DNA of 64,000 nt, taken from Mobula hypostoma. Lineage: Eukaryota. Positions within the stretch are counted from its first letter, which is position 1. Every line of letters begins with the position of its first letter. Of the stretch, positions 24,486 through 60,425 are shown piece by piece. The DNA lies in the NCBI RefSeq assembly GCF_963921235.1, contig NC_086097.1, positions 155,126,001-155,190,000 on the forward strand, read 5' to 3'. The position numbers and the translations under genes were made by a program. The notes beneath the pieces are model-generated. The model was not told the DNA's origin, ran no database searches, and worked only from the letters and a program-made list of their open reading frames with translations.

Positions 24486-24615
24486 GCAAAAAGGTCTGCA
24501 GATGCTGGAAATCCAAGTAATGTACACAAGATGCTGGAGGAACTGAGCACCAGCCAGCAACTATGGAAAAGAGTAAACAGTCAACGTTTCAGGCCAAGAC
24601 CCATCACTAGGACTG
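24486..24615 (-). mobile_element. Solo Penelope terminal-repeat copy with degenerate hammerhead
   Basis: GATGCTGGAAATCCAAG...GCTGGAGGAACT...ACGTTTCAGGCCAAGACCC...GGACTG, same family as 49705-49822. Confidence 0.75.
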
Positions 24616-25136
24616 TTCATATATCTTGCTTTAATGCTTTCTGGTTCTGATGAAAGATCATTGACCTGAAAGGTTAATGCCATTTCTCTCTGCAATGGAG
24701 ACTCCATGCTTGTCAAGTTGTTCCAATATTTTCCATTTATATTTAATTATGAATCATTGCTTGCCTGACCTTTCGTTGAAAAGGAACATTGCAACATTAT
24801 TTGAGATCCTGTTTCCATCATAGTATCCCATAGGTGGCATCCAAACACCACTATTTGATTTTGAGTAATACTGCAAAAAATCACTGGATTGTATTGAAGC
24901 ATTACACAGATTTTTTTTAAATAGCATGCCTCCTAGGCAATCAGAATAAATTAGGTATTTACATATAAATACTGTATTTTTTTCTCATAAAAGGTCACTG
25001 GAGTCTCACCAACAGTCAAGCAGAAAATCCTGGAGTAATGTCATGGTTATTAGGTAAATACTTGCCACCCACTGAAGCTGAGACTGATTTAGGTTTCCTT
25101 TTCAACCTCTTGTCAGTGCTGATCCAATACCTGCTT

Positions 25137-25425
25137 CAGTAGCACAGTGGTTAATGCGACAATATTAGAGTTTGCGTACCATAGTTCAGAGTTCAATCCC
25201 AGTGCTCTCTATAAAGACTTTGCATATCATCACCACAGAATGCGTAGGTTTTCTCTGAGTGCACCGGTTTCATCCCACAGTCAAAATACATACAGGTTAG
25301 TGGGTTATGGGTCATTGTAAATTGTCCCACGATTAGTTTAGGGGTAAAGTGAGGGTTGCTGTGCAGCAGGTCTCGAAGGGCCGGAGAGCCTATTCTGTGC
25401 TGTATCTCTAAATGAAAAGTAAAAG
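25137..25425 (+). mobile_element. V-SINE
   Basis: A-box TAGCACAGTGG, B-box GAGTTCAATCC, CCGGTTTCATCCCACAGTC core, CR1-like tail. Confidence 0.75.
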
Positions 25426-25864
25426 AAATAAGTAATGTAATACTGATGGAGAACTGACATGTGTGACATGCTTCCTGTAATTCATATGTACATATCTAAA
25501 GCAATGTTAAATAAAGTGAAAATTAAATATTAAATAAAGTGAATAAAAGCTTTAAAAATGTGCCAGAAATCTGAAAGAAAACAGAAAATACTGGAAAAAC
25601 TCAGCAGATCAGGCTGCATACGGAAAGAGAAACAGTTGCTGTTTCAGATCAGAAACCCTTTGTCAGATCTGGTAATCTTGGTGACAGAGAAAATGGGGGA
25701 GAGGGAGGCAGGCAATGCATGCAACAAAGGGAATTTCCTGGCAAGAAGACCATGAGGACTGAAAGAAGGTAGAGGAGGTGTACACAGAAGGAGATGAATG
25801 CTTCTGGTAGTAATGACATTGGTTAATTTAAGAAGCAATATTAGTTGACGGGAAGTAAACATTT

Positions 25865-26225
25865 AAGACCATAAGATATAGGAGCAGAAGTAGGCCACTC
25901 GGCCCATTGAGTCTGCTCCACCATTCAATCATGGGCTGACCCAATTCTTCCAGTCATCCCCACTCCTCTGCCTTCGCTCCATACCCTTTTATGCCCTGGC
26001 TAATCAAGAACCTATCTATCTCTGCCTTAAATGCACCCAATGACTTGGCCTCCACAGCCGCTCGTAGCAACAAATTCCACATATTTACCATCCTCTGACT
26101 GAAGTACTTTCTCTGCATCTCAGTTCTAAGTGGACGTCCTTCAATACTGAAGTTGTGCCCTCTTGTCCTAGAATCCCCATACCATGGGAAATAACTTTGC
26201 CATATCTAATGTGTACAGGCCTTTG
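25865..26225 (-). mobile_element. CR1 3' fragment
   Basis: Closely matches the reverse complement of 6935-7298. Confidence 0.88.
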
Positions 26226-27114
26226 AAATCCTGAACTCAGACTCAACAGTATTTAAAGTCATTTATTTATTTACCTATCGATCTATTTGGGCTCTTCCAG
26301 CCCTTTGTCCCATGATTCAGCCAGTGTTGCTGAATCATGGGACAATTTACAATGAGTAATGAACCTACTGGTGTTTTGTTTGGACTAAATGGTAATTATA
26401 AAATATGCAGATGTTTGGTATTGGTACTGAAGGGTGGTCCTGTGCTGCCAGTTGCCTTTAACTGTCGTTCTTTGTCGATTCTGATTTCTATTTCTTTGGT
26501 GGCTTATACAGAGACCAATGTGAGCTTGAAAACAGTATCCCCACGTTCAACCAGGTATATTACAACCTCAGAGCTCAACGCTGAATTTAACTATTTCAGA
26601 TAATAGACTTTTCAGACTGTGTTGAGACTAGTTGGTTCTGATGAAAAATCATGAAACTAATATTAATTAAGTTTTTCTCTTTCTACAAGTGCTTACCTGA
26701 CCTGCTGGGTATTACATATTTCTAGCAGCTACAGTGTTCTGTCATCATAGTTCCAACAGTTGTTCCCCACCCCCCATCATGATTACTCTTTATTCGACAG
26801 GTTGGTAGCAACCAACAGAGCTACACCATCTTCTCTGATTCATGGCCCTCTGGATCATTCAGTCTCACTTCACCTTCATCCTGTTATAGTGAACTTATTG
26901 TTTATTCCATCCCTCTCCTATGGAAATTAAACTTCTTTTGTTACGCTAATGGGAAAAAAACATTAGTTTGAAAAAATACCTATATTTTGTTTTCCATAGA
27001 TGCTGTGTACTTGCTGAATATTGCTCGCATTCTGTTTTCAATCTAATCTCTAACTTGAATTGTAAAACGAAATAGCTGCACCATCTTCAATATGTTTTAA
27101 CTTAGATGAGATCT

Positions 27115-27420
27115 TTATTTATTTATTTATTTAGTGAAACAGCAAGCCCCCTAGGTTCTTCAAGCCACACCATCCCAGAACCTCCATGAGACCCGATTAA
27201 CCCTAACCTAGTCATGAGACAATTTACAATGACCGATTAAGTTACCAGGTATGTCTTTGAGCTGTGGGAGGAAACCGGAGCACTTGGGGAAAACTCATGC
27301 ATGTCACGGGGAGAGTGTACAGAGGTTCCTTACTGAACGACACCGGACTTGACCTCTGGACTTGGAAACATCCTGAGCTGTAATAGCGTTGCACTTACCA
27401 CTATGCTACCACGGCACCCT
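27115..27420 (-). mobile_element. V-SINE
   Basis: Minus strand begins GGGTGCCGTGGTAGCATAGTGG; CTCCGGTTTCCTCCCACAG core; (AAAT)n tail. Confidence 0.75.
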
Positions 27421-27519
27421 TACTGGCTTCTTGCATTTGTTAAACTAGCTGGTTACCCATTGGTCCTCCAGTGCTAAATTATAGAAAGGGTGATCGTGGA
27501 AAATAGCAACTGATATTGG

Positions 27520-27890
27520 GATTGGCGTTGATGTATTATTGTTGTGATGTGCACAGAGGAACAGCGAAAAACTTTGTGTTTTGCATGTCATCAATTCAGA
27601 TCATTTGATTACAGCAGTGCATTGAAGTAGTACAAAGGAAAACAGTAAAGAATGCGGAATACGATGTTATAGAGAAAGTGCAGTGCAGGTGGATAATAAG
27701 GTGTACGTTCATAACGAAGTAGACTGTGAGGTCACAAGTCCATCTTATCGTGTTAGGGGACTGTTCAATAGTTTTATATATGTTTTGTCATTTCTGTCCA
27801 ATGGGAGGGTAGAGAAGAAAGAATTCCAGGAATAAGTGAGGTCTTTGATTATGTTGGCTGCTTACCAAGGTAGCAAGAAATGTAGATAGT
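27520..27890 (-). mobile_element. Old Rex1-type 3' fragment
   Basis: Resembles the other Rex1-type 3' UTRs in the window (TTTATT start, CAGTGAAAA-like and GTTCAATAG motifs). Confidence 0.45.
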
Positions 27891-28619
27891 TCATTATCAG
27901 TCCTGTCAAAATGCGAGGCACATGACAAATTAGTATAATATTATGCATTCTTGCTGTGCTAACAATAATATGAAATCCATCTTGCTTACAATGCAGACCA
28001 ATTGGATGGATATAACTTTTGTGCTGTCGGCTCCTGAAGGAATTCTGAACTGGATTGACACTTCTTGCCCTCTTAAGGCAGTGTCAAGGAAAGTATAACG
28101 TCTGCTGAATTCTAAAAACATCAGTCTGAGGTTTGCTCAAGAATAGCAAGGGTAAATTTAGTGTTGGTAAATTGAACATAAGGAAATTGGAAAGATACTG
28201 TATTTTGTAATCCAAACAATTTTTGATTTCATTATTTGATTGGGCCCATGACCTTTTAACCTTAGCACCATAAGCAGAATGCATTGCTCACTTGGTAATA
28301 AAAAGTTTTCAATAATAAATCTAATTCTAATATTGTAAATGTACATGGGCATGGTTTGCCGGTGTCCAAAACAATGAACATAGAAAATTACCTTTCGGTC
28401 AGTGCATGCCAACTTTGTTAGTGGGAGTTCTCGGTGCATGGGCTCCATGATCTCGATCTGTACAGTTCAATGCTATAATTGCATTAGCAGAGATAATGCT
28501 GTGACATCAATGGCACTACATCAGAAATACAGTAAGCTACTCATATTTTATATCGCATTGTATTCATGTCATCTTTTCTAAACTTCATTGACATTCAGTA
28601 TCACCCTTCTGAAGCCTAA

Positions 28620-28950
28620 TCTTCTTTGAAGTGTAAGAAAATGAAAGCCAAATTACTCACAGCAATGTTCCACAAACCAAAGTGTGATAATGACCAGATC
28701 ACAAACAAGAAAATCTGCAGATGCTGGAAATCCAAGCAACACACATAGTATGCTGGAGGAACTCAGTAGACCAGGCAGCATCTATGGAAAAAAGTAAACT
28801 GTCGACGTTTCAGGCCAAAACCCTTCAGCAGGACTGATAATGACCAGATGTCTGTTTTAGAAATACTGACTGAAGAGTGAATATTGGCCAGGACACTTTG
28901 AAGCAATACAGTACATAAAATCCAAGAAGGTCATTTTTACTTGTGGTGAA
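28620..28950 (-). mobile_element. Ancient Deu-domain SINE (SacSINE1/AmnSINE1-like) split by a Penelope repeat
   Basis: CACAGCAATGTTCCACAAAC...GTGATAATGACCAGAT...CTGTTTTAG...AATATTGGCCAGGACAC recalled as the Deu core. Confidence 0.6.
28700..28834 (-). mobile_element. 135-bp Penelope terminal-repeat insertion
   Basis: 15-bp TSD TGATAATGACCAGAT at 28685-28699 and 28835-28849. Confidence 0.88.
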
Positions 28951-29961
28951 ACATTCTGACATTTTTGTGAGTCCCCTGGAGGTCACAAACTCCTGATGCA
29001 AGTCTTCCATGACAATGTTGTTGGTTCCCTGGTGGCAGTTGCATTGTATGCTATTTTATTGATCAATTGTGAGATTTCATGGCTGGTATTATAGTTGCCT
29101 TGCAGGTGTGACCTTGGGAGGAAATCCTTAAGGGTTTGTGTTGTACATACTAAACAAGTAGCACTGCTCACTCTACAGGCTTCAAGAATAGATGCCACAA
29201 TGATAGGAAAGAGGAAAAGAGTTCTTCCAGGGAGAGGCAAGTTGATTGAGACCATTACCTGCAAGAAGCAATGTCTTTGGCTACCAGGCAGAGATTGCAG
29301 CAGTAATACTACTTACAAATGGAATCTATGAATGGCCTATTTAAGGGAGCTTGCAATACAGAATAAAATGAATCTATTTACCTCAGTGGGCTGTGATGCA
29401 CTCTGCTTGTCCCTCTGGCACCATTCCAGCATCGGATATGAAAGCAACAGAGAAAATACCCATTGAAAGTCAGTTTTCGATGCAGAAAAGTCAATGACGA
29501 TCAGCCCTAAGTGTAAGAAACACACTGAATAAGAGTGAGACTCCAGAGTGCAATGGTCAACCATATTAGTAATACTGTACCTGCATGTGGACTAGCCCAC
29601 ATATGTCCCATTACAGGATTGAGAAAAATAGCTATTCTGTGAATAAGCCACAATTGTCATTTATTAGACCAGTCAGGTTGAAAATCTGAGTGGTTGAATA
29701 TTGATTGATGAATATTTCTGAATATTGGTGATGAACATTGATCATTGCACTTTTGATGGCGTCAACTGAGAAACTTCATGACTGAACCTCGAGTGCTGGA
29801 AATCATTGTCTGTATTTTGTCCAGAAGTTAATTAGCCTGTAAATAGGCAGAGTTTTGCTCTATTCAAGGACAAACGTATCTTCATTTTCAAAGTACTATT
29901 AGCTTCACTGCAGTGGGAAGGAATTTCTAACCTGGGACTTCCATACCATTCAAGAAAACAA

Positions 29962-31320
29962 CACAAACATGAAAAAAAATCTACAACTGCTGGGAATCCA
30001 AAGCAACTCACACAAAATGCTGGCGGACTCAGCAGACCAGGCAGCATCTAGCGAAAAAGTAAAGAGTCGGTGTTTCAGCCCAAGACCCTTCTTCAGGACT
30101 GAGAGGGAAGGGAGGAGATGTCTGAATTTAAAGGTGGGGGTTAGATGAAAGGGGCTAGCTGGAAGGTGATAGATAAAGTTGGGTGGGAGGGAAAAGACAA
30201 GGGCTGAAGAAGAAACCCCTGATAGGAGAGGAGAGTGGACAATAGAAAAGGGAGAATGAGGAGACCCAGGGGAAGCAACAGGCAAGTGAGAAGAAACAAA
30301 AGATCAGAGTGGGGAATAGAGGAGTCACAGTTGCGGGGGGGGGGGGGTCTTTGTTCACCAGAGGAGAAATCAACGTTCATACCATCAGGCTGGAGGATAC
30401 CCCAATGGAATATAAGATGATGGTTCTCATGCCAACAGTGGCCCATCTTGAAGAGACCATGGAGGGAGTAAGATATGGCCCTTGTGGCTAAAGGGATCAG
30501 GGAGTATGGAGGGAAGGCTGGTACAGGGTTCTGAGTTGGATGATCAGCCATGATCATACTGAATAGCGGTGCAGGCTCGAAGGGCCGAATGGCCTACTCC
30601 TGCACATATTTTCTATATTTCTATGTTTCTATCAACATGTTGGAAAGGGAATGGGAATGAGGATTAAAATATTTGGCCACTGCGAAATCCCGCTTGTGAT
30701 GGATGGTGCGGCGATACTCAATGAAGCAGTCCCCCAATTTATGACAGGTCTCACCAACGTAGAGGAGGCTGCATCAGGAGCGCCGGACGCAATAGACAAC
30801 CCCAGCAGATATGCAGGTGAGGTGTTGCCTCACCTGGAAGGATTGTTTGTGGACCTGAATGGAGGTGATGGAGGAGGTGTACGGGCAGATGTAGCACTTA
30901 TGCCACTTGCAGGATTAGGTGCCAGGAGGGATGAATGGGCAAGGGAATCGCAGAGGGAACAATCCCTGTGGAAAGCAGAAGGGAAGGAGGAAAAGATATG
31001 TTTAGTGGTATGGTCCCTTTGAAGATAGCGGATGTTGTGGAGGATAATGTGTTGGATATGAAGGCTGAATTGTAGGTAAGGACTAAAGGGACTCTATCAC
31101 TAATATGACAGTGGGGAGATGGGCTAAGCGCTAAAGTATGGAAATGGCTGCGATGCAGCGAGGACACAATCAATTATAGAGGGAGGAAGACCACATTCTT
31201 CAAAGAATTAGGACATTTTTGATCCTCAGGAATGGAAAGCAGCATCTGGAAAGTAGATGAGGTGGAGGTGAAGAAACTGACAAAAGGAAATGAAACTTGT
31301 TTCAATGGCTCATCTGAAAG
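29962..31320 (-). mobile_element. Penelope-like element relic (GIY-YIG endonuclease region and terminal repeat)
   Basis: Minus strand 30720-30803 gives GVVYCVRRS*CSLLYVGETCHKLGDCF; DRVPLVLTYN and LQPDGMNVDFS motifs. Confidence 0.85.
30466..30631 (+). mobile_element. CR1 3' tail inserted in the Penelope element
   Basis: GGCTCGAAGGGCCGAATGGCCTACTCCTGC followed by (TTTCTATG)n. Confidence 0.85.
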
Positions 31321-31361
31321 GCAAGACTTCACTGGTGTGGTAGTGCCTTGGGACTACTCTC

Positions 31362-31690
31362 AATCATAGAATTATAGAATCCCAGAGCACGACAATGCAG
31401 AAATAGCCCTTTGACACATTTAGTCCATGCTGACCTGATGTTCTGCCAAGTTCCATCTACCTGCACCCAGACGATAGGCTTACAAACCCTTCTCATCCAT
31501 GTACCTATGTAACTTCTCATAAACGTTACAATTGAACACGCATCTGCAACTTCACACTCGCACAGTGAAGAAATTGTCACTCAGGTTCCTTTGCATATTC
31601 CAGCTTTCACCCAAAACCTACGATGTCTAGTTTTAGTCTCAGCGAACCTGAGGGGAAAAGCCTACATTCACTCCATCTATACACTTCATA
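31362..31690 (-). mobile_element. CR1 3' fragment
   Basis: Similar to 12245-12580. Confidence 0.75.
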
Positions 31691-33479
31691 ATGTTAAATA
31701 CCTCGATAACACTTCCCCTCCATCAATACAATATGTTTTGTTGTCATTGAAAACAAAAATATTTGAGAAAAAATAATCCATTGAGCCGACTGATAGTGTG
31801 TAGAAATGTGCAGCATCTTTGGGATTTGGGAAGGAACGGTTCAAAGGTTCATCTGACCAACAGAAAATGTTGGGGGGGGGGAAGATGTGATGAATATGCC
31901 AGTATAAATGTGATGGAAGTGAACGGCTTCCCTCTATTTCACAAGAAAATGTGAGAAAGCTGGCATTGGTAAAAACCTTTATGCTCCAGATAATGAAGTA
32001 AAGTACAATCATCATTATGGTTTAAGAAGAATATGGTAGGTTGGTGTAAGGAAAAGGCAATCATAATACTGAACCAACTCCCTGGCTAAGATCAACCGTA
32101 CAGTACAGGCCCATAGTCAAGCTAAACCAAATAACTCATTTCCACATTGCATGGTCTACTGAACAGCTCAGTCACTGGGGAATCTGATCGGCAGGTCCTC
32201 TTCGCAGCTTGTGACGGAAGCAGCTTTTCTTGAACATGTTTTTTAATTATCCAAAAGAAATATTTATGCATGAAGATGGTTGCCTGCGGAAATTCTGCCA
32301 GTCCCCATCCTCCAACAATTACCATGTTTTACATTCAATACCAGTATGAACAAACTGTGATATATTCCTATGAGGAACTTCAATTATTTCAGGCAAGATC
32401 AGGAGCTAACTACTTGGGCAACATGGAGCGATCTGCAGGAAGCATTTACTGGATAGAGTCATCCTCGCTGCTGTTTGATGGTGAGCCATTACGTGAGATT
32501 CAGCAAGTGCCAATGAACAGACAGAGGAAAGTGCAGATCCTACTGCTCGGTGGAAGGTGACATGAGAAATGACTGTGATGCGTGAACAGATGTGAAGTCA
32601 GGAAGCTTTTATACTTTCTCCTTTTCCTTTGCAGCTGTCAGTTCCATTGACAAGTTCACATTGGAAAAGCAGCACTTTCACCCTTTTCTTAAAATAGCTA
32701 AACCCATTCCTTCAAAGTGACATAATGTTTTCAACTCTTGCACTGAACGATTAATTCTGATAATGGCAGAGCGTCCGCTGGGATCATTGAAGCCTGACAC
32801 TGCCATGTAGTACTTTTATTAATATGGCATCAGCTGTTTGTTTATTCTTTATTATCTCATTACACAAATATTTCCTGCTCCTTCACCGAAGAAAGTAGGG
32901 ATAGACCAGATTATATCTTTGGTTTAATTTTCACTTCTTTTGTCTGCAGTTAACAGATTAAAGCCTCAAAATGGAGGCATCAGCATGACAAACCATGATC
33001 ACGAGGGATGCAGCCTGCTCCATTGTGAAAGGGGACAACCGTCAAGACTCCAAATCATGAGGCTCTTTCAGCTGATATAGCTCTTTTAGTATAAAAAAAT
33101 TGGGTACTAGTGCATGACCGCCTAAGAAGTTCCAGAAGGATTAAATAGAATTGCCTGAGGCTTTTGCTGTCATTCAGTGCTTCCCAACAAAATAAAAGAA
33201 GCTGAAAATCTGAAAATGAGCAGAGGATGCTGAAAACACATTTTTGTCATTTGTGTCTTTAAGTTATTACCACTTCGTGCATTGCACAAAATTGCTGCAG
33301 CAAATCTCTGGCTCAGTGGAATAAGAAAATTGTAGTTTCAAACTTTATTCCAAGGCAGAAAGGAATTAAAGAACTTCATATCGGTTGTGGGTGAGAGGCA
33401 CGAGTTAGTTGGCAATGTCACAATGTACCAATAGGACCTCATAGCAATAAGAAAATTTGTCCTACAATTCTCATCCTGG

Positions 33480-37690: not shown

Positions 37691-37944
37691 TGCATCTCTG
37701 TGCCTGGTCTGCAACCGTAGCCTTGGGCCTCATTAGATTTTCTGACTAATCACCAGTCATATCACAATCTAAGAAACACAGATGCTAGAAATCTGATCTA
37801 TAAATAGAAACTGCTGTGAACTCCAAGCAAGTCAGTCAGTATCTGCTTGTATGTCTTCAAGAATTCCTGGTAAAAGCACTCAAAATCTGAAAGAATGATT
37901 TTTCCTTGATTTTGTAGTGGGATCTTACAAATGGCAAAGGACTT

Positions 37945-38112
37945 AAACATAAGAGATTCTATAGATGCTGGAAATCTAGAGCAACGCACACACACACAAA
38001 ATGCTGGAGGAAGTCAGCAAGTTGGGCAATATCTTTAGAGGAGAGTAAACAGTTGACGTTTTGGGCAGAGACCTTTGATCAGGACTGGAAAGGAAAGGGG
38101 AAGAAGCCGGAA
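37945..38112 (-). mobile_element. Penelope terminal-repeat copy
   Basis: GATGCTGGAAATCTAGAGCAAC...CAAAATGCTGGAGGAA...GATCAGGACTGGAAAGG. Confidence 0.75.
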
Positions 38113-38364
38113 ACCATAATGGCAAAGAACATTATTATGATGAATCAGTTTCTTCATAGACTCACAAAATAACAGGTTCCCAAACACCCAAACTGTCTTT
38201 CAATTCTCAACACCTAACATGGAATGCTGATTTCTGGTTGCTTCTTGCCTCTTCGCCAGTTGTTTATCACATGCTATAAATTCTCAGAACTTTTATAGAG
38301 GACAATACTCACATGAGTCGTATAGATTAAAACCTATCAATTGAAATGGCTGGGGACAAAATTG

Positions 38365-41356: not shown

Positions 41357-42046
41357 CTCTACACATGTTGAGCAGCAGATGTCTTTGGATGGGCACGCAC
41401 GAGGATGTGGCACAGTGGATCAAAAATTGCCCGTGTTGTGTTTTAACTAAAATGCCACACCCTGAGATCCGCCCACCCACCCCGTGAAGTTATTTCTTGC
41501 TTCTAAGCCACTGGAAGTTGTTGCTGTAGATTTCACTGTGCTTGAGCCGGTAACTGATGGGCATGAGAAAGTTTTAGTAGTCACAGACATTTCTACAAAA
41601 TTCCCCCACGCGTTCCCCACTTGGGAACTACAGCAAAGGTGCTCTTGAGGGAATGGTTTTTGAAGTACGGTGTTCCTGAGAGGTTGCATTCTGACCAGGG
41701 CTGTAACTTTGAAAGTGAGGTCATAACTGAGCTTTGCAAACCGTACGGGGTAAAGAAAAGTCGTACTACACCCCAGTGTGTACTAAACACTCAGTGTGAG
41801 CGTTTCAACAGGGCGATGCTTGATTTGTTGCCTACGTTGTCTCCAGAAAAGAAATGCAAGTGGCCAGAGCATCGACTCGAGTTAGTGTATGCGTATAATG
41901 TGACGCCTCACGTAACCACCGGATATTCCCCTTATTACCTACTGTTCTGTGTTGATCCCCACTTGCCTGTGGATGCTCTGCTGGGGCAGGAACAGTCTGT
42001 AGACAGGAAATAGCCACACAGAAGAAACAACTGAATGATGCTCATG

Positions 42047-45405: not shown

Positions 45406-46734
45406 TCGATATAATTGAGGAGTGAAAAGGACCATAAATTGACTGTACTTCAGATTCACAGTTTAATTAACTCAAATACCATAACATAATATTGTGAACT
45501 TAAAACTCAGACCATATGAGTGATAGCGTGGGTGAATTTTGATCCCGCTTTATTTTTCTGACAAAGTAAGAAAGAGAGAATTTATTCCCAACAGGATCAT
45601 TAATTTCTTTCATGAACGGGAATCTCTATCAGTGACTGATTCACACCCTGCATTCTCCACTTCCATTTTATGTAATTGTTTCTTAGTATCCTGTGAAATG
45701 ATCAAGATCTAATCCTAATTCTAAGCCTTAATGCTGCTTGGCCTGCTGAGTTCCTCCAGCATAATGTGTGTGTTGCTTGGATTTCCAGCATCTGCTGATT
45801 TTTCTCTTGTGCCAAAGTAAATGCTGTCACTGCTCTTTATCAGGTCACCTAATAGTAGCCAATAAGTGAAAGTTTCCTACTGATTAATTTTTATATATAA
45901 ATATTGTTTGGCATGGTTTATAATAAAATAATTGCTTTTCCCTTTCTTTTGTTCCTAAAATAATTTGGGTGAGGTGTTGGGAGACAGTGAAGTTAAGATT
46001 TTTTTTAATATGTATGCCAAACAGGGTTGCTAGAGTATCTTCAACGTCAGGTAATTGTGCATGTGGAGTGTATTTTACCAAAAGGTTTGTCATTTTCATT
46101 TAGTAAATGGACCAATACCAAGTAGCTTTTTAACGCAGACTTGCTCTTGGCAACTTCACGGTACTCCAGTGTGAGTGGGTACTCCTGGAGTAGAGTTCTT
46201 ATTGAAGATTAAGCTGCTGAGGTATGATTGTGTGCCACCTGTAGCAACTCAAGTCAATACATCCCTGGATCATGGCAGGTCAATATGCAGCTGGAAATAA
46301 CTGGATGCTCTCCAGCCAGGTGAAGTACAGTTTGATCTCTTGAATGTACCTGAACCATTCATCCTGACTCTGGGGTTACATGTTTTTTTTTAACATTTTG
46401 TTTTGCACAGTAGTCGTGAGGTTCATCAAAGTTGAGAAGAGTCAATGATTCCCAATTTTTTTTCTTTGTTTCTGGCTATTGCTTTAATATAAAGAAAAAA
46501 ATGTCTGATCTCTGCGAGAGTACTAATCTTTGTTTCCAGTAACTGCCACTGAGTTTTTATACTTGATTTTTGCAAACAAGTCATGACTAGAAATTATTTT
46601 TCTTCTTTTCCTATTTCCTGATCAATCTCTCAGTATTACCTGTCCATCCTTACACTTGAATAATTTTACTGAGGCACACAGTTCCTTTTTGTTCTGTCTG
46701 TCCTTTTTCACTCTCTCTGCAACTTAAAATAACC

Positions 46735-47540: not shown

Positions 47541-48799
47541 TTCCCTCTTTGCCAGTTCTGATTAAGAACCTTTTGAGCTGAAGTATTAACTCTGTCTCTC
47601 CATCTATAGAAGTTGCCTGTCTTGTTGAATATTTTCAGTATTTTGTTTTTATTTTAGATTGCATTTTTAAAACATATTCATTACACAAATTTATCCCAAG
47701 ACATTTCATTAAGTGCACCACTTGGTTATGCTTATTTATCAGCTTTAATCTATTGCTTGTTGTATTGAAGCACACATGTGACTCCAGAACTTGTCTGATC
47801 TCATTTTCGAGTAGGGCACGTGTTAACTTTTGCTACCACCCCATCCACTCCTTATCCACCCCTAAACACAGGCTACTGCTAAAATTTCCCACGGCAGGTG
47901 TTATGTTCCAGATTATAACCAACCTTTGGATGAAAATGTTCTCCATTAGATCCAAAGCTCTTACCCCTTACTTTTAATCTCGGCCCCTTGGTTTAGACAT
48001 TTCCCTCAAAGCCTGTCCCATTTACTTTTGAAGTAATTGATCATTATTGTTTCCATCCTCTCCACCAGCACATCAGTTTTATTTGCTGCACGAAAGGAAA
48101 TTTTTCTTCATATTCTCCGGTCTCTTGTTCAAAATGTTAAACCTAAAGTCTGTATCTCCGAGTCCTTCTATCTTCAGCTAATGAGCAGAGTATTTATTTA
48201 TCTCCCTCAGTTAAAACTATGATGATATCCATTTTAGCTTTCATGGCTTCCTTGAAAGCAATCCCAGCTGCTCCATTCCAACTTACAAGCAATACTCTCT
48301 CTTATTTACAAAATATTAAGTACATCTCCTCTGCACCCTCTCTAGGATCTTCAGATTCTCTTTCTTTTTCAGATTCAGTTTCATTTTATTTATGATATGT
48401 ACATTGAATCATAAGTGAAATGTGTTGTTTTGTGTTAATAGCCACCACACCAAGTGATGTGCTGGGGGTAGCCTGCAAGTGTCACCACACATTCTGTTGC
48501 TAACGTACCATGCCCACAGGACAACAAAGCAGAACACCACAAGCAACAAAACCGCAAAACAAGCCACATTCCTCCCACCCTCTTACTTACTCACTCACAC
48601 AAAATCCCTCCAACCCTAGAACAAAGAGTCCCTGAACTCAAGTCTCCAGCCTCCAGTGGACAAGGATTCCGCCATTGGGCTTCAACTTCCTCAGCAGAGG
48701 TGTAGTGGACTTGGGGCTCCAGCCATCAGATCTCGATTGCTGGACATTAGGGTTTCAGTTTACAGTATCAATCCAAGACTTGCTGATGGAAATGAATGA

Positions 48800-49503: not shown

Positions 49504-49704
49504 CCTTCCCTACAAATTAAAGATAACTTCTCATTCTTCCTAAAGTGTAGTGACAGCAAAAAGATGTAGTGACCTCATTGCGGCCTCAGGACAACTTTAT
49601 GAAGGTTTATCGTAACTTTCTGCTTTTTGCTCATTACTTCTCCTAGTGAAGCCCAGATTACTGCTCTGCCAACTTCTCTCACAACAGAAACACAAAAATC
49701 TATA

Positions 49705-50778
49705 GGTGCTATAAAATCCAAAGCAACACACACAAAGTGCTGGAGGAACTCAACAGGCCGAGCAGCATCTATAAAAATGAGAATCAGTCGACGTTTCGGA
49801 ACAAGACCCTTCTTCAGGACTGGAAAAGGAAGGGGGAAGGTGCCAGAATAAAAAGGTTGGGGAGTGGGGAAGTGGAATGAGGATAACTAGAATGTAATAG
49901 GTGAAGCCAGGTGAGTAGGAAAGGCAAAGGGCTGGGGAGGAAAGAGTCTGATAGGAGAGGAGACTGGACCATTGGAAAAAGGGAAGGAGGGGACCTAGGG
50001 GTCCCCTAGGGGAGGTGATGGACAGGTGAGAAGAGGAAGAGGCCAGAGTGGGGAATTGAAGAAGAGGGAAGTTGGAGGGATTTTTTTTAACAAAAAAGTG
50101 AAATTGATATTCATGTCAGCAGGTTGAAGGTACCCAGATGGAATATAAGGTGCTGGTCTTGCACTCTGAGATTGGCCTCATCGTGGCAAGAGAGGAGGCC
50201 ATGAATTGACATGTCGGAACAGGAGTGAGAATGGAAATTACAATGCTTAACCATCGGTAAGTTAAGCTTCTGACCGATGAAACAGAGGTGCTCGACAAAG
50301 CAGTCCCCCAGTTTATAGTGGATCTCACCAATGTAGAGGAGGCCACATCAGGAGTCGGGAGCACCAGACATAATAGACGACCCCAGAAGGTTCGTAGGTG
50401 ACGTATTGCTTCGCCTGGAAAGAGTGTTTCAGGTGCTGAATGGAGGTGTGGGAGGAGTTGAATGGACAGGGTTCAGAACTTTGGCTGCTTGTAGGGATAA
50501 GTGCTGGGAAGGCAATTAGTGGGAAAGGACGAATGGACAAGTAAATCAGGATGGGAGCCAATCCCTGTGGAAAGTGGAGCTGTGGGGAGGTGAAGATGTG
50601 TTTGGTAGGATCCCTTTGAAGCTGGTGGAAATTGTGGCAAATGATGTGTTCGATGCAGAGGCTCATGGGTGGTAGGTTAGGACAAGAGGAACTCTATCAT
50701 TGTTGAGGCTTCAGGAAGATTGGTAGAGTCTGGATGTTTGGGAAATCGAGGAGATGTGGGTGAGGGCAGCATCAGTGA
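49705..50778 (-). mobile_element. Penelope-like element relic (GIY-YIG region and terminal repeat)
   Basis: Minus strand gives GVVYYVWCSR...LLYIGE; collinear with 29962-31320. Confidence 0.87.
49785..49822 (-). ncRNA. Minimal type-I hammerhead ribozyme motif
   Basis: CAGUC-CUGAAGA-AGGGUCUUGUUCC-GAAA-CG-UC-GACUG: 5-bp stem I, intact CUGANGA and GAAA core, GUC cleavage triplet. Confidence 0.72.
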
Positions 50779-51847
50779 TCTTTCTCTCAATATATCTCCT
50801 CATTTTCAGAAAAATATGTAAATGAACCTCAGATCTTTAGAACATTGTTATAAAATTGATACTGCATCTTCTAATCCTTCTCACACCTTCTTCCAGTGAA
50901 CTCCCATTTTCTAATTGTTTGTTGTTAGCCTACTCATGTCCTGCTGCTGTTATTTAGTGATAAACTGCACACTTCCAAGTTTATATCATCGACTAAGTTT
51001 AAATTCTTACTCCGTCGTTCAATATTGCCTTTTTACATTAACTTTAATAATGAAACCCAAATTACTGCTTTATTGACTTTTCCTTCAATATATTAAATAG
51101 ATCTTGCCACCTTTAGAATATACAGTATACTCATTTCAGACCTTTATAATGCTATCACTAAATTAATATTGCCATTTATACAAATCAAATTCTTGGGGAA
51201 CTTCATTACCTGCAGTTCTTTGATTATCCCAACTCATTGTCCTTAAACTGAATTTGTACCTAAGCTGACACTGATTCCACTTGCAAGAGCCTCAAATTTG
51301 TTGCCTTTTAAAAAAAAATTAGAACTTTGTCAAATGTGAAGTGAAGAAGAAACCATTTGCAGCCTGTGAGTCAAAGATATGAAATGAAGGAGAGAGAAGA
51401 GAGAACTAGGATTAAGAATGACTGCATACATTCTCATAATGGACCTCATAATGCCTCAGAGCTGCCCTTTCTCATAATAGCCAATGGAGTTCCTAAGTGG
51501 AGGTTAAAATGTACATTTGTTTTATCTTCCTCCAGTTCTTTCCAGCTTATATTTTTTTACCTCTTGAAAGAAAAATGGGACTGTCAGTGAATTTGTGTGG
51601 TTGAGGGGGCCATCCTCGTTCAATGTGTGAAACTTAAGATTCTGCCCATTGAAGGGCTGAGTCTTAATGATAGTGTGTAGATAAGTGTCTGTTGAGGTCT
51701 AGTGAATTGTACAGTAAATGCAGTTCTACAAGGGATTGAATACAAATTTTTGAAGACTACCATTTCTGTGAGATTTTTTTTCTTGCATGGCATCAATGTT
51801 CCTGGAACGATACTTCTACCTTTGACGTCTGTCATTACCTCTTATTA

Positions 51848-52045
51848 CATAAGAACATAAGAAATAGGAGCAGGAGTAGGCCATCCGGCCCATCGAGCCT
51901 GCCCCGCCATTCAATAAGGTCATGACTGGTCTGTCCGGAAACTCCACTCCATCTACCGGCCGTTTTCCCATAACCCTTAATTCCCTTACTATGTAAAAAC
52001 ATATCTAACTGTTTCTTAAATATATTCAGTGAGGAAGCCTCTTGA
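51848..52045 (-). mobile_element. CR1 3' tail
   Basis: ACATAAGAACATAAGAAATAGGAGCAGGAGTAGGCC start. Confidence 0.85.
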
Positions 52046-52365
52046 GCATATCTACCCCTGTGTGGCTACAGAATATCTAAAAACCTCTTCTGCCTATGTT
52101 TCTAATGGATTCCGTAACATTAACTTTCTCCTTCCACAGATGTTGTCTGACCTGCTGTGTGCTTGTAGTATTTTTCTACTTCTGTTTCAGATTTCCTGCA
52201 CCTGCAGTGTTTTTATTTTCTTCCCCCATAGGTCACTGGAAAAACTTGGTTGTCTCTCTGTGACACATTTCTCAAAGTTTGCAAGTTAGTTCCACTTTAT
52301 TTAATGTAAAGCACCACTGACTGTAGCCACCTAGCATTTTCCCTTTATGGTGCGTAGTTAGTATT

Positions 52366-53028
52366 TAAATAGTGTTGCCTACATTCACTACTGATCCCTC
52401 TACAGAGACATGGAGGCAATGAACTGCATAGGTACCACTGGGTATTCACAGAAGCCAATTAAAACAGCAGACAGAAATAATGTTATTGCTTCGATGCAAT
52501 GAGTTGGCCTGATTTAATTGCATATTACTATCGCAATGCCCTTTATCAAAGGCTGTCAAATTTAACAATTCTGTTATTCCTATAGTAACAGTTGTATAAG
52601 TTCACAAGAATGTAAGAAATAGAAGCAGAAGTCTGTTCTTCACTTTCCTGCTATTCAGTTAGATCATGACAGATCTTTTACTACAGTGTGTTTTCCTGCA
52701 CTTTTCCCATTTTCTGTAATTGCCTTTCCATCTAAAAATCTATCTGCCTTTGGAAAATTTACTCAGTGTATGAGCTTCCATAGACACCATGGGGTGAGAC
52801 ACCAAGTACATAAACAGAAATGTGGTCTCACCAAGGCCTCACATAATTGCAATAAAATAATTTTATTCTTGTTCTGATAACATTGTCTTGGAATAAAAAT
52901 CAACATACTGTTTGCCTCTAAATAGTGTTGCCTACATTCACTACTGATCCCTCTACAGAGACATGGAGGCAATGAACTGCATAGGTACCACTGGGTATTC
53001 ACAGAAGCCAATCAAAACAGCAGACAGA
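52366..53028 (+). repeat. 110-bp direct duplication (52366-52475 and 52919-53028), one mismatch
   Basis: TAAATAGTGTTGCCTAC...AAAACAGCAGACAGA in both; differ at AATT versus AATC. Confidence 0.95.
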
Positions 53029-53320: not shown

Positions 53321-53352
53321 TAATGCTCTAGTAAAGGGTTCACTGTTAACGT

Positions 53353-53992: not shown

Positions 53993-55204
53993 AGTACTGG
54001 CAAACTCTTGGCTATAGCCTTCCAAGTAGAAAATTGCCTATTTGTTCCGACTGTCTATTTCGTGATATTGAGCCAACCCTTAGCCCACGCCAGTATATTT
54101 GTCCAAATTGTGTGATTCATGTTTGGTTAATAACCTTTTGTGCATTTAATGAAGGTCATCTGAATGACTGAGGCTAATGTATTGATTCTCCAGGATCTAT
54201 TTTGCTCGTTGTAACCTTTGTAAACTTTGTCAATTATGTTTAGTCTTCTATAGATGCATATTGCATTTGCCAATGCTTTTATTACTGTTCACCTGACAAC
54301 TCCTCACACAATTCATGCTCAACCAAGAGAGATGAAAAATGAGAGTCCTATTCTAAGATGCTGTGGATAATCCACTGTCAATGATGAACTTTTCAAACGG
54401 GCCATAAGCTGAAAAGTAAATCCTTGAGAGTTTATTTACAGAAACTCATGGTTTAGGACCTCTGCCATGTTACAATGTCTTTGAAGTAACAGTCATTGTA
54501 GAACTAACAAAATTGCTCAGAAATGGCCAAAACTGATTTAAGCAGTCATTTGAAAGTATAAATAACATTGGAAATAATACCAACTTTAAGATTACAGATC
54601 AACTGTTCCATTACAGCATCTTTGTCATGCTAACGATTGAATATGAAATCTTTCTTTTTTGACTAAACTGAATGGAAATGTTACAATGAAAGGGGAACAT
54701 TGCCTGTGTCAAATTGTCATAAGAATTGGTTTGGATTACAGATAAAGGAAACTCAGAGAGAGGGAGCAAACCAAAAGAGTTGTAGGGAGAAAAAATTCTG
54801 AATAGACACCATGGAGAGCTCTGTCTTAAAGTAATGATAAAATATATCGGAACAAGTAATATAGAACTCCAGGGTAGCTCGCAAGCAAAACACAGACAGG
54901 ATTGACAACTTATTGATAATGTGTGTTTAAGTGTGTAAAATGCTTGGAGTTGCAATTAAAGATAGAAGTACTAGGTAGAGAATAAGAGGTCTAATGAGAA
55001 TACTTATACCTTTTGTAATTTCATGTTGTTTGTCATCATATTTCTAGATTGTAAATTTATATTATGTTTAATTGTGGTTTTTTTTTGCGTTTTAATAAAC
55101 TTAAAGGGGTTTTGGGTTGTGATTTTTAAATGCACTTTTACCACATTAATAGAAAGAATTCCAGCATTTCGTACATGCTGTTTGTTTGTTCTATAGTTTC
55201 CCAT

Positions 55205-55480
55205 TTTCTGTGGCCTCCGCCGGTCGTGGTGGACCATGGGTCCTGTGCCTGTGTTAGTCACTGGTTTGTCGAGCAGCGTCGACTGTGGCTATTGAGGTCG
55301 ATCCTGGAACGCAGGCTCTACCACAAATGCTGCATGTGTCGGGTGTTGTGGAACTGGTGTCTGCTGTGCTCTCTGTTTAGCCCTCCGCTCCTCGAACTGA
55401 CTCAGGATCACTCTTTCGCCTTGCTCTCGGTGTTGCTGAAGAGTACCTCGCCATTTGTTGCGGTCTACTGTCTAAGTAAT
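55205..55480 (-). mobile_element. RTE-clade LINE 3' end
   Basis: Minus strand gives VDRNKWRGTL...SQFEERRAKQR and, across frameshifts, TCSICGRAC/SRIDLNSHSRRC* zinc finger plus a short 3' UTR. Confidence 0.75.
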
Positions 55481-56559
55481 AATCAGGTGAGATCCAGTGC
55501 AATCCTTTGATCATGTATATATTACAGAGTGCAAATGTGCTGTTTAAGAAGAATTTCAAATTAACCTTGCACGTCATTTCGAGCTCTTCACTTCTGGAGT
55601 ATTACTCTGCAAGTTACCACGTAAGGAATTCATGAGAATAAAGATATCACACTGGTGATGATGAAGCATTGGAACAGAATGGTGTCCAAAGCAGGAAAAT
55701 GAGTAAAGGTTTTGAATTGCCTTGCACCTCTGTGACAGGCTGAATCACAACACCTCAGTGCAGATTGGAAGTGATAGGTCTTGAGTCAGACCTAAACACA
55801 GTTGAATTGTTACTAAACTCAACTCTGTTAGAACAGGAACAGAGAAAGATGGCAGCACAGATAATCTGACTATATCGCTCTGATGGTATTGGGTTTGCTG
55901 ACCATGAAGTTCCAAACTCAAATGAAGATCTTCAGCCCTGTCTGACATAGATAATACCACTTGGCACATCAAATAGCTGATCTATTAATATTTGGAAGAT
56001 GTATGTACTGAGAGGGTCAATACCCTTACTAAAGGGAGGTTATACTGTATCCAAAGGCTAGATTACTTCCCTCTTCATCCTCCATAGCAAGTTTAGTTGC
56101 CAATACCCACTAGTTGAGCGGTGAGTCCCTCCTCCCTACCAAGGGGAAGATACTTCCAGCTAACATAGCAGATTAAATACAGTTTATTTATTTTTAGTGA
56201 TACATGCTTAAATCCAGTCAAAATTCTTAAAGCACATTTAAAACTTGGAGTTTTCCAAATTACAATTTCTAAAACAAAGGATTCCAAAACACAGACACAA
56301 TTCCAATAAGCTAAAAAGATATAAGCTGTCTTTTAACTTCAGACTGATCATTGCATGCTATTTACATTATGAACTGAAGACTGGCTACCGTTTATGACAA
56401 GAACCTCAACAAAGCATATTGGTTGAAATTTTAACTTATTCATTTACTCAAAAACAAATCTTTGATCGCTGCAGTGTCAGCTGCTTTGCTAGAAAGCTGA
56501 GCTTGACAAAAAGGACCCCTGGTTCTGCACAGTGAATATCCATCATACGGTTGACAAGA

Positions 56560-57330
56560 AAAGTGGAACCTTTCTTGAACAGGAAGAAGGTTGTGTACTT
56601 AAGGTTTGGGAAGCAATGACCACAGAGGGTTCTTAAGAGTTACAAGGTTGCCAGGGAGGAGCTTAAGAGGAGACTTGGGAGGCGTATGAAGGAGTTGGTG
56701 AGTAGGATTAAGGGAAACCCCAAGGTGTTCTACACAAAGATGGCTAGTGTGAGGGTAGGACTGATCAAGCATAAAAGAAGAAACCTGTGTGGAGTCAGAG
56801 AAGGTAGGGAGGTCCTAAATAAATACATGTACCTTGTTTCAGTATTCACCAGTGAATGGGAACTTGACAAATGTCAGGTCAGCATAAATCTTTCTAATAC
56901 GCTGGAACATGTCCAGGTTAAGAAAAAACATGTTTTGTAAAATATAACAATAGATAGATTGGAGGAGGGGTGGTGGTTTCTGTGGGAAGTGAGGGAAGAG
57001 GTTGTTGCACCTTTGGCAATGAGCTTGCTGAAGTACCAGAAGTTTGGAAGATGGCAATATTATTCCCTTGTTCATGGAAGTTAACAGGGATAACTCTGGG
57101 TTGTAGACCAGTGTGTCCTACATCAGTGATGAGAAAACTTTTGGTGAAGATTCTTAGAAACATTATGAGCATTTGTAAAATCATAGACTGATAAGGGATG
57201 GTCAATATAGCTTTGTGGGGGCAGGTTGTGCCTCATAAACCAATTGACTTCTCGGAGGAAATGACAGAACTAATTAATGAATGGCTGATGTGGTGTATAG
57301 GGATTTTAGTTTGACAAGGATCCCCTGCTA
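56560..57330 (+). mobile_element. Degraded CR1 fragment
   Basis: RIKGNPKVFY, VPEVWKMA and RPVCPTSVMRKLL motifs. Confidence 0.78.
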
Positions 57331-57331
57331 G

Positions 57332-58530
57332 TGTAACAAGAGAGCAATGGATGGTGGTGAACCCAAGTATAGGGGAAGGTCTAAAATAAACTCTGACTCA
57401 AAAAAAACAAGACAACACAAACAATCCAAAGGCAAAATCACGAACAGTAGTACTAGCCATACAACTCCTATGATTGAACACTGAGGCCTTTAAGTACAGA
57501 TTTTCCATGAAGGAACGTGGCAGGCAATAATTAGCAGTCTTGGGTCATAAAGAGGCAGCAGCAGCTAATCATTCTCCAGGGAATTGGAGCATTGAAACTT
57601 GGATACCTGCCACTGTTGGGTTGGGACCTTGACAGAACATCCCTCCTACAGCTAGCTCCTGTCAGCCCAGGGTGATCAGAATGGTGCTAATGAACCGTCC
57701 CTATCAAAGTAGGGTCCAGGCTGTCCCATGGAAGAATCCAGCTTCTTCCTTCATGAGGCATATACCTCCCAATCCATGAGACACTGCTTTTTTACCTTGA
57801 ACAATGTGGATGTGCAAAAGTCATTGGACTGCGTTGGTGTGTTGTCACTCAACAATTCTGGGAGGTGGAGAAGGTTTGGGATGGAGCTGGAACTCAAGGG
57901 CTAGAGACAGGATATGTAGTATGTGGGGCAAAGCTGCATAGTGCTTGGGAATTGGAGACATTTGGCCACTGGGTTGGCACAATGCAGAATTTTGAATGGA
58001 CCGATGTAACAAGCGGCCAAATTTCTCGGTTCAACCCACGTGAGGGCCAGATTTGCCAAATGGGAAGTCTATCTTCTGCAGTGGTTGGCCTGGTCTTGTT
58101 GCTATAAGTTGGCTGGCCAGCAACATCTCTCACTTTAGCCCAGTTCTGGCAATAACTCTGTACCAGTTGGTTTTCTGATGGAAGCCTAACCTCCATTTCT
58201 TGTTCTGGGAACAGTAGAGGGCAATGCCGAAATTGGCATCTGAAAGGGGAATTGCTGACAGATGCATGCGGAAGTGTGTTATGTGTAAGCTGTACCCATA
58301 TCAGGTTGTTACTCCACGTGGTAGGCTAGACATCTGAGTGTTGGCCCTGTCCGTTTGTCCATTGGTCTGTGGGTGGAACCTGGATGACAGCCTAGCAGAG
58401 GCCCCAGTAAGCTCAAAAAAGCCTTCCAAAGCCTAGAAACAAATTGGAGGTTGTGATCAGAGACAATGAGCTGGTGGAAGATGTGCTGTAACATGAGCTT
58501 GATGGTCTTTGAAGCTGGTGGTAGTTTTGG
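57332..58530 (-). mobile_element. Chromoviral (Sushi-like) Gypsy relic: integrase, chromodomain, PPT, 3' LTR (57332-57634)
   Basis: IVSDHNLQFVSRLWKAFLSLLG; DWEVY...EGRSWILPWDSLDPTLI; minus-strand PPT AGGAGGGATG before TGTCAA...GTTACA. Confidence 0.78.
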
Positions 58531-58534
58531 AAGG

Positions 58535-58790
58535 GGTATAAAGTGGTGGTCTTTGGAGAATCAGTCTGTAAGGCAAGTAGGAAGGAGCTTAAGAAGGAAA
58601 TTAGGAGAGCCAGAAGGGGCCATGAGAGACACTTGGCGGACAGGATTAAGGAGAACCCCAAGGCATTCTAGAAGTATGTGAAGAGCAAGAGGATGAGATG
58701 AGAGAGAATAGGACCAATCAAGTGTGACAGTGGAAATGTGTGTTTGGAACCGGAGGAGATAGCAGAGGTACTTAATGAATACTAATGAGG
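58535..58790 (+). mobile_element. CR1 internal fragment
   Basis: KKEIRRARRGHE...RIKENPKAF motif. Confidence 0.8.
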
Positions 58791-58794
58791 AAGT

Positions 58795-59830
58795 AAGTTT
58801 TTTTTCCAGTCTGGTGGTCCTGTTGTGAATGCTTCGTTGCCTCCTTGATGGGAGTGGGGCAAACAGTCCATGAGCAAGGTGGATGTGTCCCTTCATAATA
58901 TTACTGGCATTTTCTAGCACCTTTTTGAATATATGTCCTTGATGGCTGTGATGCAATGGGACAGTTTTAATGGTTTTGAAGTCCTATATAGCTCAACCTT
59001 TCCTTATAAAGCATGCTCCTTAATCTAGGCAACATCCCAGTAAATCCCTGCACCCACTCTGCACAGCTTCAGCTATTTTATGCATTCCTTGCAGAGATCA
59101 AACCTTCCCTTCCCCACCCCCAGGTGACCAAGCGTGGTTGGTGCAGTGAGCAGATCAGAGAACCAAGTTCAATCGTGACCCCAGGTGCTGTTTGTAGACT
59201 GCTTGGACCACGGAGATGAAATGGTCTCTCTGGTTCTCTCTCCTAAGATGCTGCCTGAACTGCTGAGTGTGCTTCTGGCATTTTCTGTTTTTATCTCAGG
59301 TTTACACCATCTGAATTTCTTTTGCCCTCTAATTCTTGAATGCACATCTCTGAAAAGTCTGTGCATATCAGAATCAGGTTTAATGACACTGGCATCTGTC
59401 GTGAAATGTATTGTTTTGCAGTAGCAGTACATTGCAATATATAATTATTTAATAAACTATGAATTACGAAAAGGAAAGTATATAAAATTAGTTAGTAGTG
59501 GAAGAAGAGTGAATAAAAGTTGAGGAAGTGTTTGTAGGTTCACTGTCCATTCAGGAAGCTGATGAAGGAATAGTTCTTCAAACATTGAGTGTGTGTCTTC
59601 AGGCTCCTGTACCTCCCTCTTGATGGTAGCATTGAGGAGAGGGCATGTCCTGGGTGATAGGGGTCCTTAATGATGAATGGTGTCACCTTCTGAAGATTTC
59701 CTCAATGCTGGGGAATCTCTTGCCCATGATGGAGCTGGCTGAGTTTACAACTTCCTGCAGCTTTTTGTCATCCTGTCCAGCGACCCCCTTCATACTAGAT
59801 GATAATGCAACTCGTTAAATGCTCTCCATG
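58795..59830 (-). mobile_element. Rex1 fragments (about 58795-58980 and 59370-59830)
   Basis: ASNIMKGHIHLAHGLFAPLPSRR; ATCAGAATCAGG tail. Confidence 0.65.
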
Positions 59831-59914
59831 GTAATTCAAAACAGTGATGACGGGCTACCCCGGCGTGTGCACACCGTGAAATGGTGAGGGAGGCTCTAGA
59901 AAAATGATAAATTC

Positions 59915-60425
59915 AAGACTCTGCAGATTTTTGAAATCTAGAGCAACGCTCACACCCAAAGTGTCGGAGGAACTCAGCAGGTCAGCCAGCATATGAGACC
60001 CTCCATTGTTTGGGGTCGACTCCTGATGTTGTGTCCTAGCTCTCTACATTGCCGATATGCCAGTCAGGGCAATAGGATATGGAGAGTAAGCTGTTACCCC
60101 TGCAGCAGACTCCCTCTCTCCATGCGGCTTATGAATCCAAAGTAAGGGCAGAGACTGATACAATTTGGCACGAGCGGTGACACAGGCATTGCCAGTCAGC
60201 ATTGAACTCAATGGAAAACTGCTTTTGGGACCCTCGGGGTTTACTACTGAAGCCGTCCTCGCGAGTGGGTAAACTGCAGCTGCAAAGCAGGGGAGGTTTG
60301 AGATCAGACTTTTCCTTCTCCTCTGTGACCCGCCATCCACGGGTAACTGGCCCCATCTGCCCATAAATAAGCATCTATGGAGAGGAATAAACAATCAACA
60401 TTTCGGGCCGTAACCCCTCACTGGT
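59915..60425 (-). mobile_element. Penelope terminal-repeat copy split by an RTE-derived insertion
   Basis: GGAGGAACTCAGCAGGTCAGCCAGCAT resumes as AGCATCTATGGAGAGG. Confidence 0.75.
59993..60369 (-). mobile_element. Non-coding element resembling an RTE 5' UTR
   Basis: TSD AGCAT at 59988-59992 and 60370-60374; minus strand GGAGAAGGAAAAGTCTGATCTCAAACCTCC...GTAAACCCCGAGG recalled from RTE leaders. Confidence 0.6.

Follow-up and report, generated by a model that had tools for sequence, protein, structure and literature searches.

Short hammerhead-bearing repeats in a 64-kb window of a probable ray genome are most likely 5'-truncated Penelope-like insertions undergoing neutral decay

A 64-kb stretch of DNA, which in its entirety is referred to here as the window, carries a dispersed family of short repeats with a hammerhead ribozyme motif. 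An earlier note on this DNA had listed six copies between positions 24486 and 60425, all on the minus strand and all but one with a lesion in the core or cleavage site, and it had proposed that the repeat spreads like a short interspersed element (SINE), with the strand bias and the lesions reflecting either selection against self-cleavage or neutral decay. This raises the question of what these repeats are, how they became dispersed and whether their ribozymes have been under selection. We assign a probability of about 0.82 to the view that an abundant, autonomous Penelope-like element (PLE), which has a reverse transcriptase (RT), a C-terminal GIY-YIG domain and a Neptune-type Cys linker, gave rise to them as 5'-truncated insertions that were dead on arrival, and that they are decaying neutrally. 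This view is carried by a common 3' end, variable 5' ends, target-site duplications at two copies and decay at the neutral rate, all seen in the window, and by the finding that the same hammerhead and tail end two remnants with an open reading frame (ORF). The earlier description of the repeat as the hammerhead-bearing terminal repeat of a PLE is thereby borne out.

The unit is about 137 nt long (also given as about 140 bp) and consists of a 38-nt type-I hammerhead followed by a tail of about 100 nt with a T-rich end. The hammerhead is laid out as a 5-bp helix I, CUGANGA, helix II, GAAA and a two-base palindromic helix III, with GUC as the cleavage triplet. All six listed motifs were found again on the minus strand with the cores previously ascribed to them, namely CUAGUGA at 24578 (where the cleavage-site C reads as U), CUGCUGA at 28799, an intact core with U16.1 changed (CACC) at 30063, CUGAUCA with AAAA at 38050, an intact core at 49785 and a broken motif at 60392. 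A complete minimal hammerhead ribozyme (min-HHR), comprising the core boxes, helices I and II as predicted and a palindromic minimal helix III, is present at 49785 alone, the remaining five motifs having lesions. The copies that belong with these six, designated subfamily A (younger), are the following.

24485-24615, minus strand: short copy with a broken-core hammerhead at 24578-24615 and a tail of about 95 nt; 5' end near the helix I start, no target-site duplication above the null
28705-28836, minus strand: short copy, the least diverged (93% to the window majority), with A6 changed; 5' end at helix I, perfect 15-nt direct repeat
29960-31303, minus strand: 5'-truncated PLE with the C-terminal part of the RT, Cys linker, GIY-YIG remnant (stops, frameshift), pyrimidine-rich 3' untranslated region (UTR), hammerhead at 30064-30101 and tail (E 7e-49)
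37950-38117, minus strand: copy starting about 28-30 nt inside the 3' UTR, with a broken hammerhead at 38050-38087; flanked by a 13-nt direct repeat (one mismatch)
45731-45805, plus strand: tail-only copy without hammerhead, 92% to the majority; 5' end about 50-55 nt downstream of the helix I start
49690-50812, minus strand: 5'-truncated PLE with ORF remnant, 3' UTR, hammerhead at 49785-49822 (core intact, helix II weakened) and tail (E 1e-44)
60370-60425, minus strand: 5' half of a split copy, with a broken hammerhead (leave-one-out E 4e-7)
59910-59995, minus strand: 3' half (tail) of the same split copy, past an insertion of about 377 bp flanked by a 5-nt duplication
61333-61554, minus strand: older A-like copy with 3'-UTR homology and an unrecognisable core, found by profile search

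The copy at 60392 was counted once, because its tail resumes at 59910-59995; its hammerhead is indeed broken, but the copy does not lack a tail, since this continues at 59913-59995. The insertion that splits it (about 377 bp with a 5-nt duplication) lies at 59996-60369. A CR1-like 3' end at 30469-30628 (plus strand) has inserted into the GIY-YIG remnant of the 30063 element in the opposite orientation.

The identity of the family follows from its two long copies. At 30063 and 49785 the hammerhead is preceded by a pyrimidine-rich UTR of about 270 nt and, upstream of this, by a broken coding sequence. Translated searches with 152 related proteins gave matches in the family frames exclusively at 30300-31300 and 50100-50800, in agreement with the statement that four of the six copies have no Penelope coding sequence. 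A stop-free piece led to a Mobula protein (65% identity), which aligned to both ORF remnants (E 7e-49 at 30063 and E 1e-44 at 49785), and the top-scoring named relatives were Hypanus proteins. Window fragments on their own matched no relevant Pfam family. Among eight relatives that were scanned, seven contain GIY-YIG and six RVT_1, and the remnants match both the relative P0001 (GIY-YIG E 5e-4) and full-length proteins in which the two domains are combined, as is typical of PLEs. The linker C-x4-C-x2-C is present as CKWHKCYIC in the 30063 element and as CKRNKCYTC in P0001. Judged by these matches, the short repeats correspond to the 3' end of a PLE that has a linker of the Neptune type and is closest to ray proteins. 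The CX2-5CxxC linker, which marks both the Neptune and the Nematis clade (PMC8557442), may point to Neptune; the ray and Mobula matches suggest a cartilaginous fish, probably a ray, as the host. An Rfam scan of the window gave no hammerhead model at E≤5 (four chance matches), and the exact 23-nt tail pattern had no match in viral contigs and none in metagenome contigs. As a separate observation, ray RefSeq sets annotate pieces of this Penelope family as host proteins (P0001, P0003 and P0035), one of which is named mucin-2.

To what extent the family is biased towards one strand depends on which copies are counted. Copies were counted by profile searches with leave-one-out tests over the window. 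The leave-one-out E-values ranged from 1e-24 to 1e-35 for five of the listed copies and reached 4e-7 for the copy at 60392, whereas the best E-values in reversed-window controls for two profile searches were 1.3 and 0.1. The bare core pattern is at chance level, with 5 matches in the window against 3.5 expected, and the evidence therefore rests on family homology. Seven copies, one of them possibly intermediate and one ambiguous, form subfamily B (older), to which two weak plus-strand candidates (24640 and 26967) may be added.

9060-9150, plus strand: copy with the 5' part of the hammerhead missing (E 2e-12)
25558-25673, minus strand: B or intermediate copy with a broken hammerhead; A and B models score equally
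26632-26741, plus strand: copy with CUGAUGA and GAAA intact and helix II shortened (E 3e-7)
37778-37845, minus strand: old tail-only copy of ambiguous subfamily, found by profile search
47552-47663, plus strand: copy with a broken hammerhead, found by profile search
52105-52213, plus strand: copy with the 5' part of the hammerhead missing and a strong acceptor-like site at 52140, found by profile search
59206-59322, plus strand: copy with the hammerhead mostly lost, found by profile search
24641-24745, plus strand: probable B copy of weak membership (leave-one-out E 2.6) with both core boxes undamaged; separated by 25 nt from the 24578 copy in a head-to-head arrangement
26967-27046, plus strand: possible tail-only B copy of marginal membership (leave-one-out E 0.014)

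Altogether, there are 15 firm insertions in the window, nine on the minus and six on the plus strand (two-sided binomial p of about 0.6), and inclusion of the weak copies gives nine against eight (p=1.0). Eight of the 15 belong to subfamily A (24578, 28799, 30063, 38050, 49785, 60392 and 61338 on the minus strand, 45731 on the plus strand) and seven to subfamily B (9064, 26633, 47552, 52112 and 59236 on the plus strand, 25560 and 37778 on the minus strand), the last two scoring about equally or better with the A model than with the B model. A minus-strand orientation thus holds for all six copies listed previously but not for the family, in which older copies on the plus strand had been missed, such as the one at 26633 with its intact core boxes. 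Subfamily B leans in the direction opposite to A (5 of 7 plus). As A and B have a common motif architecture and opposite strand leans, one-sided selection on cleavage fits badly. Orientation controls with CR1-like 3' ends (5 plus and 9 minus in 14 rows) and with the CR1 middle part (7 plus and 1 minus in 8 rows) showed no consistent bias. A possible extra motif at 24274-24311 (E 0.39) was left out of all counts. The two motifs on opposite strands at 24578-24745, head-to-head and 25 nt apart, resemble the inverted pairs described in PMC4209133.

The lesions were examined by comparing 11 conserved core sites with non-CpG helix and tail sites in the six listed copies, scored against the window majority. 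Changes were found at 9 of 66 core sites (13.6%) and at 111 of 711 flank sites (15.6%; Fisher p=0.86), and the core rate falls further if the first bases of the 60392 copy are flank rather than element. At the flank rate, a single intact core among six has a probability of 0.39-0.40 and is the most likely outcome. Since the core rate equals the flank rate, decay by itself accounts for one intact copy in six. Of the 11 changes that affect the core and cleavage site, three would be CpG transitions (G12 in the 38050 copy, C17 in the 24578 and 60392 copies), and in the loose-end consensus of genomic contigs the helix III CpG has decayed in many copies. By established hammerhead rules, a U at position 17 does not fully block cleavage. 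The comparison of core with flank rates had been proposed in the earlier note, which had named equal rates and the lack of a genome-wide orientation bias as the outcome that would contradict its inference; this is what we find locally, the rates being equal and the whole family being without strand bias (9 minus, 6 plus). The neutral alternative is therefore favoured over the selective one in the window.

Could sense-oriented or cleavage-competent copies nevertheless have been purged because they cut host RNA, with the window lying in a plus-strand transcript? The lean of the young subfamily to one strand (7 of 8), a mild positive G-C skew of 0.065 in unmasked sequence and the depletion of retrozymes from Xenopus introns (bioRxiv 2026.07.22.740005) would fit such purging. 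However, besides the equal core and flank rates, the older copies mostly have the opposite orientation (5 of 7 plus, the plus-strand one at 26633 having its core boxes intact), lesions in antisense copies would be under no selection, and a solo minimal motif showed no cleavage in vitro (PMC4209133). Moreover, a simple splice-site scan of the window yielded no recognisable host exon among its top 70 candidates, and no host gene was identified. We consider purging extremely improbable. The minimal hammerhead, with its palindromic helix III, folds only with the help of a second copy, and a solo genomic copy is probably inert.

The distribution of 5' ends bears on how the repeats were dispersed. 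Relative to the helix I start, the A copies begin at about -1040, -990, -120 or more, -30, 0, 0, +5 and +55; two (30063 and 49785) extend into the ORF, and some copies have no hammerhead. Frequent 5' truncation with a common 3' end is characteristic of PLEs. Direct repeats at both boundaries exceeded the null at 28799 (a perfect 15-mer) and 38050 (a 13-mer with one mismatch), the null being that 3 of 600 random pairs reach at least 13 nt and 1 of 600, a self-overlap, exceeds 13 nt. Of 1000 random stretches, none resembles the UTR of the long copies as closely as do the upstream 25 nt of the 38050 copy. A start about 30 nt inside the PLE UTR is as expected from truncation of a long RNA. Short and long copies are equally alike in pairwise comparison, and the short copies form no subgroup. 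Among the 17 copies viewed, none clearly begins at the cleavage site. None of the 15 tandem-repeat rows of the window overlaps a family copy, and the copies are spaced 1.3-22 kb apart, so that the head-to-tail tandem arrangement of a non-LTR (long terminal repeat) retrozyme is not seen in the window.

Contigs of four public runs, two presumed to be DNA and two presumed to be RNA, were placed on the 49785 element at 80% likeness, and about 50,000 contigs were placed from each of the two presumed DNA runs. In one run (X1), the summed depth, used qualitatively, was highest in the tail (2.2 million) and about 12-fold lower in the hammerhead bin (181,000); it was 85,000-202,000 in the next three UTR bins, 600-50,000 further up and lower again in the ORF, with 29 in the unique flank. 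There was no drop across the 5' edge of the hammerhead (121k at 49800, 100k at 49823, 229k at 49840 and 218k at 49964), and no peak of loose ends at this edge among the 24 rows listed of 3288. No RNA data set was listed as covering 24000-32000. The unique flanks of the 49785 element had zero cover in the two presumed RNA runs, which is uninformative either way.

These data bear on the SINE-like spread proposed earlier, in which a non-autonomous unit of about 137 nt (hammerhead and tail) would be transcribed from its own source loci, moved in trans by the PLE protein and have a fixed 5' end at helix I. In its favour, the perfect duplication at 28799 places the 5' boundary of that copy exactly at helix I, the copies at 24578 and 60392 start near helix I and are not preceded by UTR-like sequence, Chlamydomonas has PLE derivatives that are putatively non-autonomous (PMC8557442), and retrozymes derive from the pseudo-LTRs (pLTRs) of PLEs (bioRxiv 2026.07.22.740005). 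However, five of the eight A copies start away from helix I, and a duplication-bounded copy (38050) holds 3'-UTR sequence. No tRNA gene was found in the window, none of its 21 B-box matches lies within a short copy, and the short copies have no Rfam match and none of the tRNA, 5S or 7SL heads that would be expected of a SINE transcribed by RNA polymerase III. Taken together with the steady depth across the 5' edge, the lack of a loose-end peak there among the rows listed and the absence of a short-copy subgroup, this makes a SINE-like unit quite unlikely, and the proposal is not upheld.

On the strand of the motif, an acceptor-like site lies to either side of it: a polypyrimidine-CAG is found at the 5' strand of helix I, and a polypyrimidine-YAG precedes an ATG some 20 nt beyond the cleavage site. 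A genome-wide depletion of sense copies could thus reflect splicing instead of cleavage. Indeed, any real orientation bias might stem from cryptic 3' splice sites by which sense intronic copies disturb splicing, an explanation that we regard as doubtful. The nine acceptor-like sites that were scored ranked 2-154 among the 8711 AG sites of the window, albeit with a rough self-made weight matrix and in a UTR that is pyrimidine-rich throughout. In the Penelope of D. virilis, the 5' strand of helix I is where the intron ends (PMC4209133). However, none of the 15 joints listed of 808 coincides with these sites, and the window has no overall bias that needs explanation. It would be a long shot to suppose that a subpopulation of 137-nt units has its 5' end set by a 3' splice site overlapping the 5' strand of helix I, with splicing switching the ribozyme fold and defining a short RNA that is copied in trans by the PLE protein. 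If true, this would be a promoter-less, spliceosome-defined, SINE-like parasite, and the overlap of intron and ribozyme would be conserved across PLE clades.

Several observations weigh against truncation followed by neutral decay. Three of the eight A copies have their 5' end no more than about 10 nt from helix I, and the duplication-bounded one at 28799 starts precisely there; duplications above the null were found in only 2 of the 17 copies examined, and no full-length element was recovered. The strand lean of subfamily A (7 of 8 minus, p=0.07) becomes 9 of 10 if the ambiguous old copies at 25560 and 37778 are both A, and that of the six listed copies (6 of 6) has a p-value of 0.03. With 66 core sites only, the rate comparison excludes just a large excess of core changes, and contig depth is not copy number, as it depends on local likeness to a single, 13%-diverged copy. 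Lastly, the tail as the start of an ORF is unsupported, with no tail match among 160 proteins (152, then 8, of which 7 were new), none of them a known full-length ray element. A conserved structure of the tail is likewise unsupported, as none of five consensus pairs showed a two-sided change.

If the copies are truncated PLE insertions, the PLE endonuclease would nick the target, as known from PLE biology, and reverse transcription would have a fixed starting point, about 100 nt beyond the hammerhead, as it has in vitro for a lizard PLE, where it initiates internally, 111-118 nt into the ORF, and where cleavage is not needed for insertion (PMC11167929). Reverse transcription would usually abort early, such that most copies keep the tail alone or the tail and hammerhead. 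This would be consistent with the report that 5' truncation and a single terminal repeat characterise most PLE insertions, tandem retrozymes being derived from pLTRs (bioRxiv 2026.07.22.740005). A solo hammerhead, being probably inert, would decay at the background rate, aided by CpG loss, and would leave selection against cleavage little to act on.

The window also contains other mobile sequences. A long, lightly broken L1/Tx1-like non-LTR element with an endonuclease-like frame lies at 19778-23371 (plus strand; RVT_1 E 4e-34), and three CR1-like fragments are clustered in one orientation at 2576-7300 (plus strand). Two copies of a retroelement 3' end form a near-perfect inverted repeat (14615-15027 and 16499-16885, 93-97% over about 400 bp), between the arms of which a faint PLE RT match is found at 16108-16190 (E 0.2-0.3). 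Further pieces are those of a Tc1-like DDE transposase at 62892-63326 (plus strand; DDE_3, E 3e-11) and of the integrase core of an LTR element at 41567-42013 (plus strand; rve, E 1e-4). A 119-bp direct repeat, 96% identical, is located at 52357-52475 and 52910-53028, its copies being 553 bp apart.

A literature search retrieved no account of the family from either rays or sharks; papers behind subscription, Repbase/Dfam and preprint supplements, including a chondrichthyan retrozyme set, lay outside this search and may hold it. The closest match is the min-HHR of metazoan PLE pLTRs (Cervera & De la Peña 2014, PMC4209133), which has the same 5-bp helix I, CUGANGA, extra base before helix II, GAAA and palindromic two-base helix III. 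These motifs occur in PLE ends, thousands per fish or amphibian genome, and most are single and probably belong to truncated PLEs; a single motif showed no cleavage. In contrast to the ray family, the hosts named in the available part of that study are teleosts, coelacanth, Xenopus and reptiles rather than cartilaginous fish, and the ray family, at about 15 copies per 64 kb, seems to be more numerous. Neptune-clade PLEs (Craig et al. 2021, PMC8557442) likewise combine an RT with a CX2-5CxxC linker and, at the C terminus, a GIY-YIG domain, are frequently 5'-truncated and carry a hammerhead near the 3' end, but microsatellite targeting is not seen in the ray family, which has clear 13-15-nt duplications at two copies. 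In the PAc Poseidon of Anolis (Frangieh et al. 2024, PMC11167929), copies likewise share a fixed end point roughly 100 nt downstream of the hammerhead, and the motif is followed by an ATG; however, this element belongs to another clade, and protein matches do not support the ray-family tail as an ORF start. Non-LTR retrozymes (PMC7229834, bioRxiv 2026.07.22.740005), of which one chondrichthyan case is reported, are similarly non-coding and pLTR-derived, with type-I hammerheads and dispersed monomers, but they form tandem units with canonical hammerheads that give circular RNA, whereas the ray family is non-tandem and its motif minimal. The family is therefore real but ordinary, a new member of an already described kind of element. 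Solo minimal hammerheads from truncated PLEs have been known since 2014, and the finding in itself matters little. Dated copies of a single vertebrate genome, numbering tens of thousands, would nonetheless be a resource for well-powered tests of whether cleavage by PLE hammerheads takes place in vivo and whether a conserved splice site overlaps with the motif.

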